Positions 8,733 to 16,744 of a DNA stretch of 64,000 bases are shown here, in pieces. A program made the translations under genes and the position numbers. The notes beneath the pieces were generated by a model, which worked only from the letters and a program-made list of their open reading frames with translations, was not told the DNA's origin and ran no database searches. This stretch comes from an uncultured Gemmatimonadaceae bacterium. GTDB lineage: Bacteria > Gemmatimonadota > Gemmatimonadetes > Gemmatimonadales > Gemmatimonadaceae. Location of the stretch: assembly GCA_963817955.1 (NCBI GenBank), contig CAWFQK010000002.1:288001-352000 (forward strand), in the 5' to 3' direction. Positions within the stretch are counted from its first letter, which is position 1; each line of letters starts with the position of its first letter.

Positions 8733-9338
8733 TCACGCTGCCGCTTTCCAGACCATCCGCCCCATGCACACCTCGACGGCCGCGCGCGGTTCGCCAGCCA
8801 CGGCATGCGTGTCCAGATCCACCCATCGGACAAACCGGTCGCCGTCGTCCGGACAGAGCTGCCGTATGTTCCGATGAATGCCATGCTCGGCGAGGCGGCC
8901 GGACTCGTCGATGCTCGCTTCGATGGTCCGGCACTCGAAGCAGGGCTTCTCCTCTGCCGTGACGGTCGTGCCCTCCACGTGCACGACGATGCCCGTGTGG
9001 AGATAGCGGCGCCGCAACCTGGACCACTGGAGAAAGACGTCGCCGCGAATCGGCATGCCCACCCGTCCGATCCCGCGCTCGCTGGCAAAGCGCCACAGGT
9101 CGTCGCCGTCGGCGGTCGCGGGGAGCGGCCAGGCCGACCAGCCCGTCAGGTGATCGAAGTGCGACCAGTAGCCCACATGGTACACGAACGCCGCATGCCA
9201 CGGCGCGTCGATCGGTGCATGCACCTCGTGGAGCATGTACTCGATCAACTGTCCTCGGCCCGTCGGCCGCTCTTCATGGACGCCAATGAAGCCGTTGGCG
9301 CATGCCACGAACGCATCAGGAGACAGTGGACGAATCAT
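8733..9338 (-). CDS. CHAP-like amidase homologue with the catalytic Cys replaced by His
   Basis: IGVHEE...RGQLIE...PWHAAFV...GDVF...HTGIV...TIEAS, versus the canonical PWCAAFV...HTGIV...TIEGN. Confidence 0.7.
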   Translation of the reverse strand: MIRPLSPDAFVACANGFIGVHEERPTGRGQLIEYMLHEVHAPIDAPWHAAFVYHVGYWSHFDHLTGWSAWPLPATADGDDLWRFASERGIGRVGMPIRGDVFLQWSRLRRRYLHTGIVVHVEGTTVTAEEKPCFECRTIEASIDESGRLAEHGIHRNIRQLCPDDGDRFVRWVDLDTHAVAGEPRAAVEVCMGRMVWKAAA

Positions 9339-9388: not shown

Positions 9389-10261
9389 CTACTGCACGTC
9401 GAGCCGGTTCCCATGAATGCAGGCGGTTTCCCCCGCGTGTAACGCGCGTCCCGCTCCGTAGCTCGCCGACTCACTCTCGATGATCGCACTGCCCTGGTGC
9501 ACCTCGATCACCGTCGCCTCCCGCCCACCGCGGATGGTGTACCGTCCTGGCAACAGATCGACATGCACGCGGGTCGTGGAGATCCCAAAGAGCGAGTGGC
9601 GCGCCCCGTTCACGGCAATCTCGATGTCGCCCTGCAGGAACCCGGCGCGCGTGAACGCCGCACCCCGCGCGATGGGGGCATAGATGAATGTGCTTCCCGG
9701 CATGAGCATGAGATTCGAGCTGTCCGGAAGGATCAGACGCTGCGCGGCGCCACCGGCGGGAACACACCACTCCGTGGTGCCCCACCGTTGCCGCTCGCAC
9801 GACGTCTGCGGCAGTGGCCGCGACGCGATCGCCCGCGCCAGGGCATAGCTCCCACTGCCCACGCCGCCGACACGCAGCACGAGCGCCGCGAGGCCAACCG
9901 TCTGCGGTAGGTACCGCCAATACCGCAGCCGGTCCCACGCGCTGTGGTCGCCCAACAGTCGATGCGAGAACACGTCGGTACGCGCCAGCCCCGCCGCTTC
10001 AGTGATCTGGTCCCAGCCCGCCTGTGCCGCCGCACGTTGGCGTGCCGATTCGTCGAGCGGCACGGTGCTCTTGATGAACGTGATGGTCTCTATCCATTCG
10101 CCGACCCGCGCGTCGAAGACCGCTTCACGTTGCATTCTGGCCTCTACGCCATGTGCCGCTTCCGCGTCAAGCATGCCCCGCGCGTATTCCATCGCCAGGA
10201 TGTCGTCGTGAGTCACGACGCCTTCGCCATCAGTGTGGATGATATCCATACGATTATGCAT
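9389..10261 (-). CDS. FecR-like anti-sigma factor (N-terminal anti-sigma helix, TM segment, FecR-like beta domain)
   Basis: Y..G.L...EA..VE.R, then LILPDSS.L.L.PGS, ..L.G.I.. and T.IEVHQGSA.I. Lies directly downstream of, and overlaps, the sigma gene. Confidence 0.7.
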   Translation of the reverse strand: MHNRMDIIHTDGEGVVTHDDILAMEYARGMLDAEAAHGVEARMQREAVFDARVGEWIETITFIKSTVPLDESARQRAAAQAGWDQITEAAGLARTDVFSHRLLGDHSAWDRLRYWRYLPQTVGLAALVLRVGGVGSGSYALARAIASRPLPQTSCERQRWGTTEWCVPAGGAAQRLILPDSSNLMLMPGSTFIYAPIARGAAFTRAGFLQGDIEIAVNGARHSLFGISTTRVHVDLLPGRYTIRGGREATVIEVHQGSAIIESESASYGAGRALHAGETACIHGNRLDVQ

Positions 10262-10967
10262 GATCGCTCCTCCGCATGCTCGTCGTCCGCGGCGCGCCCG
10301 CCGAGATGAGCGATTGCTGACCCAGGGGCAAGCGGCCCGCCTGGTATTCGTTTCGGACGGCCAGAAGCTCGGCGCGCAGCTCGCACACGATGTGCGTCAC
10401 CCGGCCCGGCGTGATGCCGAGAGCGGCGGCGGCGTCCCGATGTGGCATCTCGCGATGAAAGACCAACTCATAGACTCTGCGTTGCTGCTTGGTCAGGTTC
10501 CCGACGCCTGCCTGGATGGCCGTCCAATACTCGGCGTCCACCAACGCGGCATCTGGCCCATCGACCAGGACCGCATCGGGGTATGTCGTCAGGCTCACGG
10601 TGCGCCATCCACCCTGCCGTGCGTTGTCCCGACGTGCATCCTTCAGCTGGTTGCCGGTCGCCTGTTTGACGTAGGAGAAGAACTCTGCCTTGTGCTCGAA
10701 GCACGCGCCCTCGTCGCACCTCTTCAGGACCTTCAGAATGACCTTCACGGCGATATCCCACGCCTCGTCTTCCAGGGCGCCTGCCTTGCGGGCCGTGCGA
10801 AACGCCGCGTCGTACGCCTCTTTGAGGCGAGCGTCGAACAGTGGATCCAGCTTTGCGGTCGATGGTACCGGCAGGAGCGGTGGCTCCTCGACGTTGACAT
10901 CGTGCATACAGTACTCGTCCGGGTGGACCGGTGGACGGTAGAGAGGCAAGGTCGGGGTCGGCGGCAT
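10254..10967 (-). CDS. ECF-type RNA polymerase sigma-70 factor
   Basis: Region 2 (AWDIAVKVILKVL...FFSYV....NQLKD..R) and region 4 (LTKQQRRVYEL.F....HRDAAAALGITPGRV). Confidence 0.85.
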   Translation of the reverse strand: MPPTPTLPLYRPPVHPDEYCMHDVNVEEPPLLPVPSTAKLDPLFDARLKEAYDAAFRTARKAGALEDEAWDIAVKVILKVLKRCDEGACFEHKAEFFSYVKQATGNQLKDARRDNARQGGWRTVSLTTYPDAVLVDGPDAALVDAEYWTAIQAGVGNLTKQQRRVYELVFHREMPHRDAAAALGITPGRVTHIVCELRAELLAVRNEYQAGRLPLGQQSLISAGAPRTTSMRRSDHA

Positions 10968-11121
10968 CGCGTCTGATGTGCCTCTCTACTTGTACTAACG
11001 CCGAAATCGGCAAAACATGTCGGTTTTGGTCAATCGGTCATATTGGCCCTTGCGCCGACCCCCCATTTTCGGAACTAATATATAGAGGCATGTTCATCAC
11101 AGAACGCTCAGGCGCCGCGAT

Positions 11122-11940
11122 GGAGTCGATCGCGCCGAGATCGAATGCGTGCCTGTCGAGATGGGATCGATCGTTGTCTAGCTCGAATGCACGCTTGTGT
11201 AGCTGGAATCGATCATCGTTCAGACCGAATGGACGCGTGTCCAGGTGGGATCGATCGGTGTTGAGATCGAATGCAATCCTGCCCCGAGGGAATTGATCGC
11301 GGTCGAGACCGAATTCCCGCGACTTTACCTGGAATACATTCCTGCTCATAGGGAATCCCTCGCTGTCTCACTCCAACTCACGCCTGCGCAGGTGGAACTC
11401 CCGCCCGTCACGATCGAACGAGCGCCGATCGAGGAGTGACTCCGGCGCATCCAGCTCGCACCAACGACGGATCAGGGCGGAGGCATTCCGGTTCCGATCG
11501 AACACACCGGTGTCGACCGATAATGCCGCCCGCGCCAGTGACAATGCCCCTCGCGCTCCATGGAACCTCTGCTCGCCAAGGCGCCTCTGATGCGCGTACA
11601 CACACATCTCGCGCGCGTCCACCCGCAATCTCCGCTCGGTTCGCTGGAATGATCTGACGTCGACGTGGAATGGTGTCCCGGTCAGGTCGGATTCCTTCCT
11701 GTCGAGAGCGAATCCACGCGCATCCAGGTGTGATTGGTCTGTGGTGAGACGGAACGGCGCCGGCGCAAACACGAACCCGTCGCGTGCAAGAACGAATCGG
11801 TCGCGTGCAAGCATGAACCGCTCGCGACCGACAGCGGACTCACGGCCGTGCAGGATGGAGTAGCGGGCATCCCGCGAGGAGTAGTCCCGGTCAACAGCAA
11901 ACCCTCGCTCATCACCATCGGAGCCTCGGCCCTCGAAGCC
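11122..11940. repeat. Degenerate 21-nt tandem array, about 39 units in strict phase
   Basis: A GAA/GGA-type anchor recurs every 21 nt in most units (11122, 11143, 11164, 11185, 11206 ... 11773, 11794, 11815, 11836, 11857, 11878, 11920) with no shift of register. Confidence 0.85.
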
Positions 11941-12138
11941 TCTCCCGCTCGATCCACGCGGGACTCGTCCGCGCCGACATGGAACAGATCCCTGTCGACA
12001 GGTAATCGATTGTTCTGTAGGACCCAGTCGCGCGGACGCACGAGGGATGGCTGGCGCGGCACGTAGACACGACCAATGCACGCGGCACGTCGCGCTGTCC
12101 CTCGGCGACTCCGACAGGTCTGAAGGCAGCTCCCGCTC

Positions 12139-12262
12139 TTCCGACGACCATTCCGTCATTCCCGACTGCGCTTCCGTCGGTTCCGACGACCATTCCGTCA
12201 TTCCCGACTGCGCTTCCGTCGGTTCCGACGACCATTCCGTCATTCCCGCCGCGCTTCCGTCA
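12139..12262. repeat. Near-perfect 42-bp tandem repeat (2x21-nt sub-units), about 2.9 copies
   Basis: TTCCGACGACCATTCCGTCATTCCCGACTGCGCTTCCGTCGG at 12139 and 12181, with a partial third copy at 12223. Confidence 0.95.
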
Positions 12263-12379
12263 CTTCCGACGGCGATCGCGACACATCTCACGTCTGTTGC
12301 TCTCTCTTCACGCCGGCGCGTCGGGCGCCCGCCGGCGTGCAGTTTTCTTTTGGCGCCCCCATGGCCACTTGGAGGCCAT

Positions 12380-13153
12380 ATGAAATACAGTGAAGGCAGT
12401 ACCCTGGAGACGCTCCGCCGCAGCGACGCATTCATCGCGGCGAATCCCGGCCCGTTCGCCACACTGAGCGGCTCGACGACGCTACGAGAGTTCAGCGACA
12501 CGATCGCGCAACTCACGGCCCACGCGGCGACGCAGGAGGATGGCAGCCGCGCGAGTCGGGGCGAGACGACGCGCCAGCAGGCGCTCCGGGTCGCGCTCCG
12601 CAAGCATCACATGCAGGGCATCGCGGCAGTCGCGAAGATCCGGCTCAAGGCAGTCCCGGACTTCAGCTCGCTGACGATGCCGCGGGCCAATGTCTCGACG
12701 GAGCGGTTGCTCGCTGCGGCGGCGGCCATGGCCGAGGCGTCGCGGCGGCACGAGGCCGTGCTGATCGACGGCGGGCTGTCGACCAATTTCATTGCACGTC
12801 TCGAGGCAGCGGCGGAGACGATGAAGGAATCGCTCGATGGTCGAGCGACATTCGGCGTCCGTCGACGGGGCGCCACGGCAGGACTGTCGATCGAGGAGCA
12901 GCGCGGACGCAACATGATCAAGCTGCTCGATTCGGAACTCCTGCCGCTCATCGGCGCCGACCAGGCCTTGCTCGCCGCCTGGCAGACCGCCAAGCGCATT
13001 CCGCGCAAACCGGGCGTCAAGATCGGGTCTACGACTGCGGCGACGACGCCGCCAGTCACCACCCAACCGGTCACCACATCACCCGTCACCACGCCACCCG
13101 TCACCACGCCACCGGTGACTCCTCCGCCGGCCAGTGAGGTGTCGGCCGCGTAG
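12380..13153 (+). CDS. All-helical hypothetical protein (DUF6261-like architecture) with a Pro/Thr-rich (PVTT)n tail
   Basis: GGAGG RBS at 12371 and ATG at 12380. Amphipathic helices end in ...LLAAWQTAKRI, followed by about five 15-bp PVTTx repeats. Confidence 0.75.
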   Translation: MKYSEGSTLETLRRSDAFIAANPGPFATLSGSTTLREFSDTIAQLTAHAATQEDGSRASRGETTRQQALRVALRKHHMQGIAAVAKIRLKAVPDFSSLTMPRANVSTERLLAAAAAMAEASRRHEAVLIDGGLSTNFIARLEAAAETMKESLDGRATFGVRRRGATAGLSIEEQRGRNMIKLLDSELLPLIGADQALLAAWQTAKRIPRKPGVKIGSTTAATTPPVTTQPVTTSPVTTPPVTTPPVTPPPASEVSAA

Positions 13154-13186
13154 TTCGTCGCACCAGGAGGTCACAATCCGCAGTAC

Positions 13187-13220
13187 ACGCGAACGGCCGC
13201 CCTCGGGCGGCCGTTCGCGT
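13187..13220 (+). terminator. Strong GC hairpin (terminator or processing stem)
   Basis: ACGCGAACGGCCGCCC-TC-GGGCGGCCGTTCGCGT, a 16-bp inverted repeat with only a weak U-tail. Confidence 0.6.
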
Positions 13221-13269
13221 TCCTGGGCCTCTCACTCGCCCATTCCCATTCCCCTATAAAGGATCTCCC

Positions 13270-13560: not shown

Positions 13561-13856
13561 GCCCGCGCATGACGTTCTCCATTCGACACGGCGTTGCCCT
13601 TGCCCTCAGCTTCGTCCGCGAGCACACGGCCGAGAGCTGCACGCGGCTCTGCGCCATTCTGTGCTGCCTCACCGGCTGCGGGGCCGCGGTCGCGACGCTC
13701 TGGTTCGCCTTCATCAACCCCAGCGCGGCGGCCACGGTCGCCGCGCTGGTGGGAGTGACCTCGGCGCTCATTGCTGCCGGGTGTGTCGCCCTTCTCACCC
13801 GTACCAGAAACCCTGACTGCGCCCTCACCCCTGCTGGCGCCGGAGGTGTGGCATGA
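13557..13856 (+). CDS. Putative holin (small 2-TM protein)
   Basis: 99 aa with two hydrophobic helices, directly upstream of and overlapping a peptidoglycan hydrolase gene. Confidence 0.5.
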   Translation: MSPRMTFSIRHGVALALSFVREHTAESCTRLCAILCCLTGCGAAVATLWFAFINPSAAATVAALVGVTSALIAAGCVALLTRTRNPDCALTPAGAGGVA

Positions 13857-14374
13857 TGCCCGAGAGTCTATATAAGGAAGTGAGCGACGGCGTCCGCCGC
13901 GCCCTGGACTTCGCCCTCACCAACGTGGGGGTGTGCGAAGAGCCCCCTGGCTCGAACCGCGGGCCCGAAATTGACGCCTGGGCCCGCGAGTTCGGCTCTC
14001 CACCAGGGTCCTTCTGGTGTGCACTCGCCGTAGCCAAGGCCCGCAAGATGGGGAATCTTTGGATTCCGCAGGGTAGCGCCGGCTCGTGCGACGAATGGAT
14101 ATACCAGGGGCGTCATGCTGGCGTCATGTCGAACCTGCCACAGCCCGGCGCGGCCGTCGTCTACACGAACAACAAGCGCCTCACCCAAGGCCGCTACGCC
14201 GGCCAGCTCGACGCGGTCCACATTGGGCTCGTCCTCCGCCTCACCCCCAAGCTCCTGTCCATCGAGGGCAACACCACACTCGGCAAGTATGATCGCGAGG
14301 GCTACGTGCAGACGCTCAAGGAGGTAGACCCCACCCGGGTGCTCGGCTTCATCCTGCCGGAGAAACCAGCATGA
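13853..14374 (+). CDS. CHAP-domain peptidoglycan hydrolase (endolysin-like, no signal peptide)
   Basis: VGVCEEPPGSNRGPEID...FWCALAV...PQPG..V...HIGLV......SIEGNT, with the Cys/His/Glu-Asn motifs intact. Confidence 0.85.
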   Translation: MMPESLYKEVSDGVRRALDFALTNVGVCEEPPGSNRGPEIDAWAREFGSPPGSFWCALAVAKARKMGNLWIPQGSAGSCDEWIYQGRHAGVMSNLPQPGAAVVYTNNKRLTQGRYAGQLDAVHIGLVLRLTPKLLSIEGNTTLGKYDREGYVQTLKEVDPTRVLGFILPEKPA

Positions 14375-14973
14375 AGCCAACACTTCTCATCATGACAACG
14401 ACCAACCGCCGGTGGCTCCCCGCCACCGGCGGTGTGGTCCTGGTGCTCGTCGCACTCGCATCGTGGATGCATCGAGCCAACCGCTCGTCGCTGGACGCCA
14501 CGCTTGCAGCACATGAAGAGCGCGCTCGGAACGCCGCGGCGGCAATCCGCGACGCGAAGTCCGCCGCGGAATCGGCAGGCAAGCAGGAGTCGGCCTACGT
14601 GCAGACCGTATCAATAGAACGGGCCCACGCCGGCGCAGTGCGCGTCCGCGCGGACTCGGTGTTCGCTGTCGCGCAAGTGCTGGATACGGCGTTCCGTGAG
14701 GCCTACGTGCTGCGTGACAGCGAAGCCATTGCGTTGCGCGTCCTCGCGGCGGCGCAGGACAGCGCACTGACGTGGGCCGACACGCGTGCAGTCTCGCTCT
14801 CGACGGCGCTCGACATCAGCGAAGTGCGGGCGGCGGACGCCGAGTCGCTGTTAGTGGTGGTCCAACGCAACGCCAGCGAGCAGTGCCGCATCGTGCGAGT
14901 GGTTCCGTGTCCGTCACGACGGGTGATCGCGGTATTGAGTGGGGCAGCGGTGTGGTTGGCGTTGAAGCGGTGA
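14371..14973 (+). CDS. Spanin (Rz)-like protein: N-terminal TM, long Ala-rich coiled coil, Cys pair and hydrophobic C-terminus
   Basis: Position after the endolysin with ATGA overlap, together with the domain architecture. No lipobox seen. Confidence 0.5.
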   Translation: MKPTLLIMTTTNRRWLPATGGVVLVLVALASWMHRANRSSLDATLAAHEERARNAAAAIRDAKSAAESAGKQESAYVQTVSIERAHAGAVRVRADSVFAVAQVLDTAFREAYVLRDSEAIALRVLAAAQDSALTWADTRAVSLSTALDISEVRAADAESLLVVVQRNASEQCRIVRVVPCPSRRVIAVLSGAAVWLALKR

Positions 14974-14978
14974 TAACA

Positions 14979-15081
14979 GGACACGGGACACGGGACACGA
15001 GAAACTCACAACGCACAACTCACAACTGGAAACTCGAAACTCGCCGACCGGTGGGCCGCCCGTTACCGAGCAACAAGCGAC
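14979..15081 (+). repeat. Heptamer-built intergenic element, copy A
   Basis: (GGACACG)3-AGAAACT-(CACAACN)3-GGAAACT-CGAAACT-CGCCGACCGGTGGGCC...; starts 6 nt after the stop at 14973. Confidence 0.9.
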
Positions 15082-15091
15082 CCTCCTCATA

Positions 15092-16744
15092 CTATCTCGG
15101 CTCCGCCGCGCGAAGCTCCAGAACGGTCATTCGCGTATTCATGTGCACGCTCGCCATGGCGGCATCCACGTACGAGCCGCTGCGGTACGCCTGCACGGTG
15201 ATCTGCCCCTCGAAATGCTTAACGCACATCTGGAACTCGCCGTTGCTCCCGGTGATGTATGCCGCGGCCGGATCCAGCGAGAGGCCGCGAAGGACGCTCA
15301 CGACGACAGCCCGCATCGGCGCGCCGCCACGATCGAGCACTCTCCCGGCGACCAGCTGGTAATTCCGTCGCGCGTTCTCGCGTGACATAAGGCATGCGTC
15401 GGCCATGTAGTCGTCGATCGACGGCAATGGCATGGACACGCGCACGAGCGAGTCCCGCACGATCCTAACCACGGTGGTGCTGTCTCGGATCATGCCGAAC
15501 GCGCGAAACGGAGCATCCGTCAGCGCGACGCGATAGGAGCCGGGAAAGATCCCCGTGAGATCGACCGTGCCCAGGGAATCGGTCGTCGCACCGTATGGCG
15601 TACCGAGAAGCCTCATATGGATGCCGGCGCGTGCGTCACCCGAATCACTCGGGATTATCACCGCGTGGAGTTCCCCAAGCGGACCCTTCCACGTGCCACC
15701 GTCGGGCCAATCGGCGCGGGCGAGCTCGCCGCCCACTTCGCGTGCGACGAGCGCTGGGCGGACGACGGGACCGCGCGGCTGGTGGACGGTATCCTCGACG
15801 ACGTCGGGCATCCTCAACGTCCACTGTGTCACGAGGACCGTCCCATTCGGCATGTCGCGAAGAGCGACGCTGCCACCGGGGGCGATTTGCCGCAGTGCGG
15901 GAGCGAGCCCGTCGTAGGAGAAGTCGATCCGATCCAGTCGGCGATGGACCGTGTCCACCCAGAAGGTGCCCTGAATCGCGACCACGTTGCGGCGGTGTTC
16001 CGCGGGCGCGAAGGCCAAGCCGAGCTCGCGCACATCACGATCCGTCGAGCGAACCACGCGAAAGCAGTAACCACGCGCGAAGGCATCGTCGGCCAGGACG
16101 CCGGCGTCAGGCCCGAAGAAGAGCACCTGGTCTCCGCTTCGGCCGGTGAAGCCGGAGTCCACGAGCTGCGATGGCGTACGTGGCGCCGCGAAGGGATTGG
16201 CGGTGGCCGTAGTCGAGTCGAGCGTGACGGCCTGATCCTGGATCGAGCCGTCGCGAAGCCGGCGCTCGAAATGGATGCGGAGCAGGCGGGGACGCGCATC
16301 GTGTCCCGCCACGTCCGCGGCGAGGAGCGCCGCGCGCACCTGCTCCCAGAGCGCCACAGCATCGTGGTCTCCCTCTCTCCGTGCACAGCGGGCGTTGGTG
16401 CGCGACTGCACCGGCGCGAGAAGGGTCGGCAGGCGGAGTAGCGACACGCGTACGACTGTGCCGGAGTCGGCCACACGTGCGATCTCGCGGGGCGCGTAAC
16501 CGATACGCAGCACGCGGAGCTTGGCGACGGCGGCGTGCGAGACCACGAACTCGCCGGTCGTCGCCGTGAGCACTCGTTCGAGTGGCGTCCGCAACGAGTC
16601 GAGTGCGACCACGACGGCGCCGGCCAGGGGCGCGCCGCTCACGCTATCGACGACACGGCCACGGAATTGCTGGGCCGGTGCATTGGCGGACGCGAGGACG
16701 AGGATCATCGCGGCAGCACGTACGATACGGCGGCTGGGCGGCAC
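15092..16744 (-). CDS. Secreted protein with carboxypeptidase-regulatory-like domains
   Basis: Signal peptide, then GRVVDS.SG.PL.GA.V....T...G.F......LR..RIGY.P. Further prealbumin-like repeats lie near the C-terminus. Confidence 0.8.
   Translation of the reverse strand: MPPSRRIVRAAAMILVLASANAPAQQFRGRVVDSVSGAPLAGAVVVALDSLRTPLERVLTATTGEFVVSHAAVAKLRVLRIGYAPREIARVADSGTVVRVSLLRLPTLLAPVQSRTNARCARREGDHDAVALWEQVRAALLAADVAGHDARPRLLRIHFERRLRDGSIQDQAVTLDSTTATANPFAAPRTPSQLVDSGFTGRSGDQVLFFGPDAGVLADDAFARGYCFRVVRSTDRDVRELGLAFAPAEHRRNVVAIQGTFWVDTVHRRLDRIDFSYDGLAPALRQIAPGGSVALRDMPNGTVLVTQWTLRMPDVVEDTVHQPRGPVVRPALVAREVGGELARADWPDGGTWKGPLGELHAVIIPSDSGDARAGIHMRLLGTPYGATTDSLGTVDLTGIFPGSYRVALTDAPFRAFGMIRDSTTVVRIVRDSLVRVSMPLPSIDDYMADACLMSRENARRNYQLVAGRVLDRGGAPMRAVVVSVLRGLSLDPAAAYITGSNGEFQMCVKHFEGQITVQAYRSGSYVDAAMASVHMNTRMTVLELRAAEPR

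Follow-up and report, generated by a model that had tools for sequence, protein, structure and literature searches.

The 64,000-nt stretch of DNA analysed here, hereafter the window, comprises positions 288,001 to 352,000 of the forward strand of contig CAWFQK010000002.1 from an uncultured Gemmatimonadaceae bacterium (GenBank assembly GCA_963817955.1), and our subject is a long array of 21-nt units that it carries upstream of the gene for a 257-residue basic protein, p257. Both belong to a module of ~2.3 kb, which consists of a conserved head, 51–65 phased units, a hairpin in the 5′ untranslated region (5′ UTR) with pairing between its loop and a downstream tail, the p257 gene itself and a terminator (Table 1). 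At least 14 copies of the module are present in this genome, and the homology between them is confined to the region from ~10955 to ~13230 of the window, the left edge falling at 10953–10957 and the right edge at about 13224–13234. A check for a transposable element found these sharp ends to be common to the copies and a transposase-like frame to be absent from the module. A 21-nt array precedes most genes of the p257 family in two families of the same order, with unit sequences that are unrelated to one another.

Within the distal part of the array, the identity between positions 21 nt apart is 0.460 (z = 13.1 against mononucleotide shuffles and 12.2 against triplet shuffles), with corresponding values of 0.476 at lag 42 and 0.419 at lag 63; the remaining lags between 1 and 70 lie within about |z|<5, and the lag-21 background in 252-nt windows across the whole genome is 0.296 ± 0.040. 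An initial annotation, made from the letters alone, had proposed 21-nt units in one unbroken register and an autocorrelation peak above shuffled controls, and both are present: stacking the sequence from 11122 gives 39 units with no indels. Each unit opens with an anchor on the + strand (G in 30/39 units, then A in 26/39 or G in 11/39, then A in 37/39), and further conservation is seen for T14 (24/39), C15 (26/39), A17 (31/39) and G18 (26/39), column 16 being unconstrained (0.01 bit). The 42-nt super-period that had been noted for the first units was also recovered, by Tandem Repeats Finder (TRF), as 3.3 copies at 11138–11275. The limits first drawn for the array were correct as regards the single register, but the units do not end there: they continue past a 1-nt shift at ~11941–11961 as far as the proximal repeats, and scoring with a position weight matrix (PWM) places 28 hits of the window array in one phase and three in the next. 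Over the same distance the anchor switches strands, from GAA on the gene strand in the distal units to TTCC in the proximal ones, as it also does at C1:142486. Inverted pairing between the distal and proximal parts amounts merely to two short pairs of 14–15 nt, and a giant hairpin joining them was rejected for that reason. The unit stack and the column counts contain no constant repeat block, and the array had thus rightly been distinguished from clustered regularly interspaced short palindromic repeats (CRISPR). The variable positions had been thought worth comparing with mobile DNA; a search of phage and plasmid collections with the array found zero matches, which argues against the units having been captured from such sources.

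Table 1. Features of the module and of related loci; positions are those of the window unless a locus is named.
Feature	Position	Strand	Basis or remark
Conserved head of the module, at the left homology boundary	10955..11100	+	16 copies aligned
Motif CTTGCGC-N18-ACTAR, in the head	11049-11078		genome motif search
Only AT-rich box of the module	about 11074-11088		within the head
Distal array, 39 units of 21 nt in one register, G-R-A anchor	11122..11940	+	autocorrelation and unit stack
Lone in-frame TGA of the heptad frame	11368..11370	-	codon CGA/Arg-like in sister copies
Continuation of the array, register offset by 1 nt, more degenerate units	11941..12138	+	unit stack; PWM phases
Proximal repeats, 42-nt period x3.2 at 95% match (21-nt x6.3), TTCC anchors on the gene strand	12139..12271	+	TRF
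5′-UTR hairpin with T-rich run and tail	12309..12358	+	conserved in 14 copies
Hairpin arms	12309-12318 and 12330-12339
Hairpin loop	12319-12329
T-rich run	12343-12351
Tail GGCGCCC	12352-12358		complementary to loop bases 12323-12329
p257 gene, 257-aa basic protein	12380..13153	+	ribosome-binding site GGAGG at 12371-12375
Perfect 14-bp palindromic hairpin past the p257 stop codon	13188..13219	+	adjoins the right homology boundary
5′-UTR element at further loci	L019, L028, L029, L031, L032, L034, L037, L045-L048, L050, L076-L080
p257-like genes at contig ends (examples)	G186:C15:44-754, G186:C44:4-738, G086:C76:351-1100, G224:C24:50-733

A blast search of the genome with the array returns 75 matches. 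When a PWM built from the window's 39 units is scanned across the genome and clusters of at least six unit hits are counted, 25 are found, 22 of which (at least 14 hits each) are arrays of the window's unit type; in several of these sister arrays all of the PWM hits fall in one phase (27/27 to 37/37). A scan that is blind to unit sequence gave 83 windows with excess lag-21 identity. The longest and strongest 43 of these were taken further, and a p257-like frame lies within 1.5 kb at 21 of them; at the other 22 there is none, and unrelated genes follow the array. Moreover, the distant paralogues of p257 in this genome (28–36% identical) each lie behind a 21-nt array of their own, made of a different unit, and at C1:440910–442532 two p257-like genes are found in tandem behind a single array. 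The motif in the head has 23 occurrences in the genome, as against four for its reversed control, and every one is at the distal end of an array.

Sister copies hold the 21-nt register mainly through the gain or loss of whole units: among nine copies of the window's module, the length from head to gene varies from 1078 to 1371 nt, leaving remainders modulo 21 of 3, 3, 6, 6, 5, 6, 7, 6 and 7. Recent tandem amplifications are found near the head at C4:1120267–1121946 and C4:765640–767361, with units of 41 nt (16 and 14 copies) and 83 nt; these are equivalent to 21+20 and 21+21+21+20 nt, respectively, i.e. 20.5–20.75 nt per unit. A comparison of window positions 10940–13240 with C2:716110–718392 reveals a mosaic, in which the gene and proximal region are 93–98% identical and the array 68–82%; this would follow from a higher rate of evolution in the array or from an exchange of genes among the modules.

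Of 24 genomes from the same genus, 13 have p257 genes, as do 18 of the 150 others searched in the family (13 of 77 genera, the genus of the source genome being counted). A phylum-wide draw found them in 6/69 genomes of the window's family and 39/125 of a second family of the same order, and in 0/106 genomes of ten further families; the gene is often multi-copy, with up to 13 matches per genome. The upstream regions of p257-like genes from other genomes (n = 57) were scored for an array by a fixed criterion: 42 have one at lag 21 and 43 at lag 42, as opposed to 0–3 at each of lags 15, 18, 20, 22, 24, 27, 30, 33 and 36. The lag-21 controls gave 6/52 for downstream flanks and 169/3000 for random 1.5-kb pieces of this genome, and looser looks at the p257 loci gave a concordant picture. 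Fifty-seven arrays were located upstream of 48 of 64 p257-like genes; they have no unit motif in common, and the head motif was not found when it was sought in the loci of other genomes. The expectation of the initial annotation that homologues of this gene would sit beside 21-nt arrays is therefore satisfied, by the 42 upstream regions as well as by the paralogues within the genome, and its suggestion of selection on spacing with free sequence stands, much strengthened by the contrast between lag 21 and the nine other lags. The conserved property is the period, and it is tied to the p257 gene family. In relatives, p257-like genes often begin within tens to hundreds of bases of a contig end, suggesting that the upstream arrays break short-read assemblies and are, as a result, under-counted.

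Such breaks at p257 loci, together with the many copies of the module, the many broken copies of p257 in this genome, the recent local amplifications and the mosaic described above, would also be expected if the array were a selfish or neutral satellite or a recombination tract. It would then consist of slippage-prone repeats carried by a proliferating module, which may provide homology for conversion between p257 paralogues and pseudogenes; trypanosomes offer an analogue in the repeats that precede their variant surface-protein genes. We regard this as highly improbable, given that a neutral process would not keep to a period of 21 nt alone in both families, that the length from head to gene stays at 3–7 modulo 21 across a change of 300 nt, and that one base per unit is unchanged in 1068 comparisons of aligned units.

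The period is kept through complete turnover of the sequence, and 21 bp corresponds to two turns of B-DNA; the array, therefore, most likely works as double-stranded DNA. The explanation that we favour, albeit tentatively and at a little under an even chance, is that the array forms a DNA lattice with a repeat of two helical turns, to which protein binds cooperatively and which sets the expression of the downstream gene. The lattice would be one-faced and phase-coherent, such that the face or bend presented is the same in every unit, and a protein would bind or wrap it cooperatively. Our guess as to the binder is the module's own p257, which is Arg-rich and helical: in the predicted model its 55-residue helices (about 80 Å) would be roughly as long as one 21-bp unit (about 71 Å). 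Once bound, the lattice would set the expression of the gene, or build a nucleoprotein filament. RNA from the array, taken from either strand, folds no better than its shuffles (z +0.67 and +1.00); this lack of RNA structure, the strand flip of the anchor, the units of 20.5–20.75 nt and the existence of arrays that have no gene all fit DNA better than RNA.

Several observations weigh against the two-turn lattice, and they concern coding, transcription, the putative partner and the sampling. As regards coding, the minus-strand frame of the array reads as xLDxxxF/S heptads, rich in Pro, Gly, Asp and Arg, and it is broken in the window by a single TGA, exactly as had been noted at the outset. A stop-free frame is found on the heptad strand in 11/22 arrays and on the other strand in 2/22. 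Summed over eight arrays, the heptad frame contains six stops where about 19 are expected from column shuffles, a roughly 3-fold deficit (which is not significant for any one array, with P of 0.10–0.51, the eight arrays being related). Additionally, the G+C content by codon phase (0.685/0.469/0.685) resembles that of real genes here (0.69/0.46–0.51/0.79), and column 16, which would be a fourfold Leu site, is the unconstrained one, making an origin from, or a residual use as, heptad-coding sequence possible. Two of the copies have been called as proteins in a public collection. On this evidence, the array could be a minus-strand gene for a heptad-repeat protein, fast-evolving or decaying and divergent from p257, in which the TGA of the window would be the mark of a pseudogene. 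There is an obvious likeness to coiled-coil and solenoid proteins, in that 21 nt equals seven codons and one frame is largely open. We nevertheless hold this to be very unlikely on the following grounds.

Eight of the 22 sister arrays were aligned unit by unit (the chosen span being a whole number of units, and the window array being cut at 11940), which gave 28 pairs with 71–95% identity and 1068 aligned unit pairs. This unit-level procedure was used instead of whole-array alignment, as the latter is unreliable in repeats: a MAFFT alignment of 14 whole arrays was enriched in gaps of 21, 42, 63 and 84 nt (90, 28, 5 and 10 instances, respectively), and 1-nt gaps were the commonest (105, flanks included). 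Codon-position bias had been put forward as a sign of coding, yet the substitutions in the heptad frame are spread evenly over the three positions (0.144/0.166/0.170). The ratio of nonsynonymous to synonymous substitution rates (dN/dS) is 0.90 in this frame and 0.79–1.23 in the other five; in the p257 genes of the same modules, which served as a control, it is 0.15–0.34 with a third-position excess. Within the anchor codon, the first base shows 0/1068 changes, whereas the second base (0.158; Phe<->Ser) changes more than the third (0.087), indicating a constraint at the nucleotide rather than the residue level. The period-3 index of the eight arrays lies between -0.009 and +0.022, as compared with 0.026–0.043 for neighbouring genes and 0.039 ± 0.018 for 909 genome windows, 1.2% of which are at or below 0.

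The integrity of the frame gives a mixed picture: alongside the stop-free frames noted above, the six in-frame stops (five TGA and one TAG) occur at differing places in 5/8 arrays, and register shifts are seen in 15/22 arrays (-1, +1, -2, +2, -4 and -7, plus one stray +10/-10 pair); none of the 38 shifts (36 without the stray pair) is divisible by 3, and all of them break the frame, the 41- and 83-nt amplifications counting in the same direction. The best intact heptad frame (L007) has 386 residues, and the open frame runs a long way before its first start codon, a TTG; no conserved start is seen, and the C-terminus is unconserved, its end being altered by a 1-nt difference in the AT box. Protein searches with candidates of 212–676 residues found just two relatives of this best frame among 5.77e9 clusters, both on contigs that equal in length two contigs of this genome and none outside it, and no Pfam family. 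Furthermore, the arrays of other p257 loci do not prefer either strand for the open frame (33 same, 31 opposite and 14 neither, for 57 arrays), and the plus-strand frames that had been thought open each contain 4–7 stops across the 39 units. Thus, a 7-residue repeat protein is disfavoured: unlike heptad-repeat proteins, the array has neither purifying selection nor a period-3 signal nor protein homologues, and it tolerates frame-breaking shifts. The substitution patterns show that it evolves without protein-level constraint, and the heptad frame is probably not a gene; the array may be descended from, or mimic, a heptad-coding repeat, but it is not now kept as protein.

The second set of observations that count against a DNA lattice concerns transcription through the array. 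There is a mild excess of C over G on the gene strand in 41/57 arrays, several arrays reach to about 1–40 nt from the start codon, and a conserved RNA element, the 5′-UTR hairpin, lies just downstream of the array; each of these fits the array being transcribed. The hairpin is terminator-like and could form a pseudoknot. Across p257 loci, a tail complementary to the loop is found 4–20 nt further on, and the loop and tail covary (GGACGCG/CGCGTCC, GGGCGCC/GGCGCCC, GGGTGCC/GGCACCC, GGATGCG/CGCATCC and TGGCGCG/CGCGCCA). An alignment of 18 of the 5′ UTRs put stems of unequal length out of register, and an alignment-free count was used instead: the hairpin–loop–tail design, with fixed geometry, is present in 18/41 loci and in 40/2050 dinucleotide shuffles (2%), and there are 4.0 T in the 10 nt past the stem vs 1.8 A before it. 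Rfam 15 gave no match at E<=1 for window positions 10500–13000, and for the 5′ UTRs of eight related loci gave only sub-threshold hits, lying elsewhere. Given this element, transcription of the gene strand must begin ~75 nt or more ahead of the start codon. The element is likely to be an attenuator or translational operator of the module, and it is a candidate for a new cis-regulatory RNA, whether pseudoknot or attenuator. As to where transcription begins, a scan for sigma-70 promoters found zero sites, and AT-rich 8-mers at 46 loci are variously distal (18), proximal (21) or inside the array (15).

The main rival to the DNA lattice is that the array functions as a phased leader RNA. According to this scheme, which we consider somewhat unlikely, the head would be a promoter and the array an unstructured 5′ leader of 0.3–1.4 kb, in which the units set the binding register of an RNA-binding protein, be it p257 or a factor of the host. 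Occupancy of the leader, a proposal we rate no higher, would choose between termination at the hairpin and T-run and either read-through or translation of p257; alternatively, the leader would be the scaffold of a ribonucleoprotein filament. The ribosome-binding site is closely preceded, on the gene strand, by the terminator-like hairpin and T-run. The far end of the array holds both the head motif and the one AT-rich box that the module has, and the absence of secondary structure would suit an RNA that is coated with protein; the loop–tail complementarity, the C>G skew and the extension of several arrays to the start region point the same way. However, a leader RNA gives no geometric reason to hold exactly 21 nt while the sequence of the unit turns over, the anchor switches from GAA to UUC inside one module, arrays persist where there is no p257-like gene, and no Rfam family is matched. 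Moreover, Rho would be expected to terminate transcription readily in an untranslated leader of such length. The processing of an array RNA into 21- or 42-nt products, one of the options raised at the outset, finds no support.

Regulatory RNAs with repeated motifs are well known, examples being the TRAP-binding trp leader, the HutP-binding hut leader and the CsrB/RsmZ sponges, and the array, if transcribed, would resemble them in having many evenly spaced short motifs, with little other structure, beside a terminator-like hairpin. It differs in that the spacing is 21 nt rather than 2–5 nt, the array can be as long as 1.3 kb, GAA predominates as the anchor instead of GGA or UAG, the motif varies from array to array and there is no Rfam match. 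Identification of the units as CsrA sites was not adopted because of the prevailing GAA anchor, nor was their identification as RNase E sites (RN|WUU), given that U is found at +2 in 20/39 units only.

The remaining objections to a two-turn lattice relate to its partner and to the sampling. Judged from its conservation, p257 is a real protein family: an alignment of 21 sequences (A1) has 13 invariant columns, and the homologues start at the same position with good ribosome-binding sites. Using this alignment, AlphaFold2 predicts an elongated helical bundle for residues 1–212, including two 55-residue helices (predicted local distance difference test score, pLDDT, 85.3), and a disordered C-terminal tail that is rich in P and T. 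Residues 1–214 contain 31 Arg/Lys as against 22 Asp/Glu. Nevertheless, p257 is only a candidate DNA binder, and its fold matches no DNA-binding protein: comparisons with the PDB and with viral fold libraries gave nothing significant (best E = 0.18 and 0.049, respectively), searches of Pfam and PHROG found no family, and the look-alikes found in the ESM Atlas are unnamed clusters, including some assigned to Acidobacteriota and Bacteroidota. Lastly, sister copies and paralogues are non-independent samples. As a separate observation, the P/T-rich tail is encoded by 15-nt tandem repeats (4.5 copies at window positions 13046–13113), and the copies of the gene differ by 15-nt indels in this region.

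Among known systems, the closest to a two-turn DNA lattice are plasmid arrays: the centromeres of R1 (parC/ParR) and pSK41 (parC), which are bound by a product of their own operon, and the iterons of P1, R6K and RK2. The likeness lies in direct repeats of fixed length and in helical phase, preceding a gene that encodes a possible binder, for which the natural reading is cooperative binding on one face. With respect to the repeats themselves, the correspondence is good, since the window array has 39 units of constant length and in sister arrays 33/33 to 37/37 PWM hits are in phase. Conserved positions that could form a recognition core (G1, R2, A3, T14, C15, A17 and G18) are present within the window array, but there is no motif common to the arrays of different modules; some 4–6 of the 21 positions are conserved within an array and none between arrays. 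The arrays described here are also 10–20 times longer (39–65 or more units), and they occupy chromosomal loci, with dozens per genome. As for a cognate Rep, ParA or ParM and a plasmid context, none was found: the module holds p257 alone, lacking any Rep, ParA, ParM or ribbon–helix–helix gene, and p257 itself is without a known DNA-binding fold. Three further identities for the units were not adopted: SARP-type TCGAG heptamers (which are spaced by 11 nt instead of 21, and which would not leave column 16 free), Dam/SeqA phasing of GATC (found in some units only) and adenine mutagenesis of the kind due to diversity-generating retroelements (the adenine is invariant).

It is conceivable, although quite unlikely, that arrays and p257 proteins constitute dozens of cognate pairs per genome, in which the array is a length-setting template or ruler, occupied by one protein or dimer per 21-nt unit, for the polymerization of p257 into a defined nucleoprotein filament that is read by spacing and not by sequence. 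Were this true, the module would be a cellular, chromosomal counterpart of the viral nucleocapsid or the plasmid segrosome.

The surroundings of the module contain several other features. An ECF-type (extracytoplasmic function) sigma/FecR-like pair (9389–10967, minus strand) lies immediately to the left of the head, and the module is flanked by weak CHAP-domain-like frames at 8733–9338 (minus strand) and 13853–14374 (plus strand), with E values of 0.007 and 0.005, respectively, which are below the Pfam cut-offs. Runs of the heptamer (GGGACAC)n, with at least two copies at 113 places in the genome, adjoin the heads of several modules (e.g. at C8:40886–40906, C4:1408330–1408350 and C4:1542971–1542998). 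A short sequence at ~14900–15100 of the window has up to ~97 blastn copies in this genome and is probably a dispersed small repeat; its translated frames suggest that it includes heptamer runs.

Taken on its sequence features, we rate the module as lying outside the known kinds, no known system explaining such arrays. Full-text searches of the literature on intergenic tandem repeats of Gemmatimonadetes and on 21-bp bacterial repeats and periodicity brought up no such arrays in the titles and the opening parts of the abstracts. The loci would explain assembly breaks in soil Gemmatimonadota, and they carry a warning for annotation, as the open heptad frame invites the prediction of repeat proteins that are probably not made. 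In almost all of the cis-elements known to us, the feature that is conserved is the sequence; here, by contrast, is an element of 0.2–1.3 kb whose sole conserved property across two bacterial families is a 21-nt period, tied to one uncharacterised protein family. Selection that acts on nothing but spacing or helical phase can thus be tested on a concrete example, for which a candidate partner protein is named.

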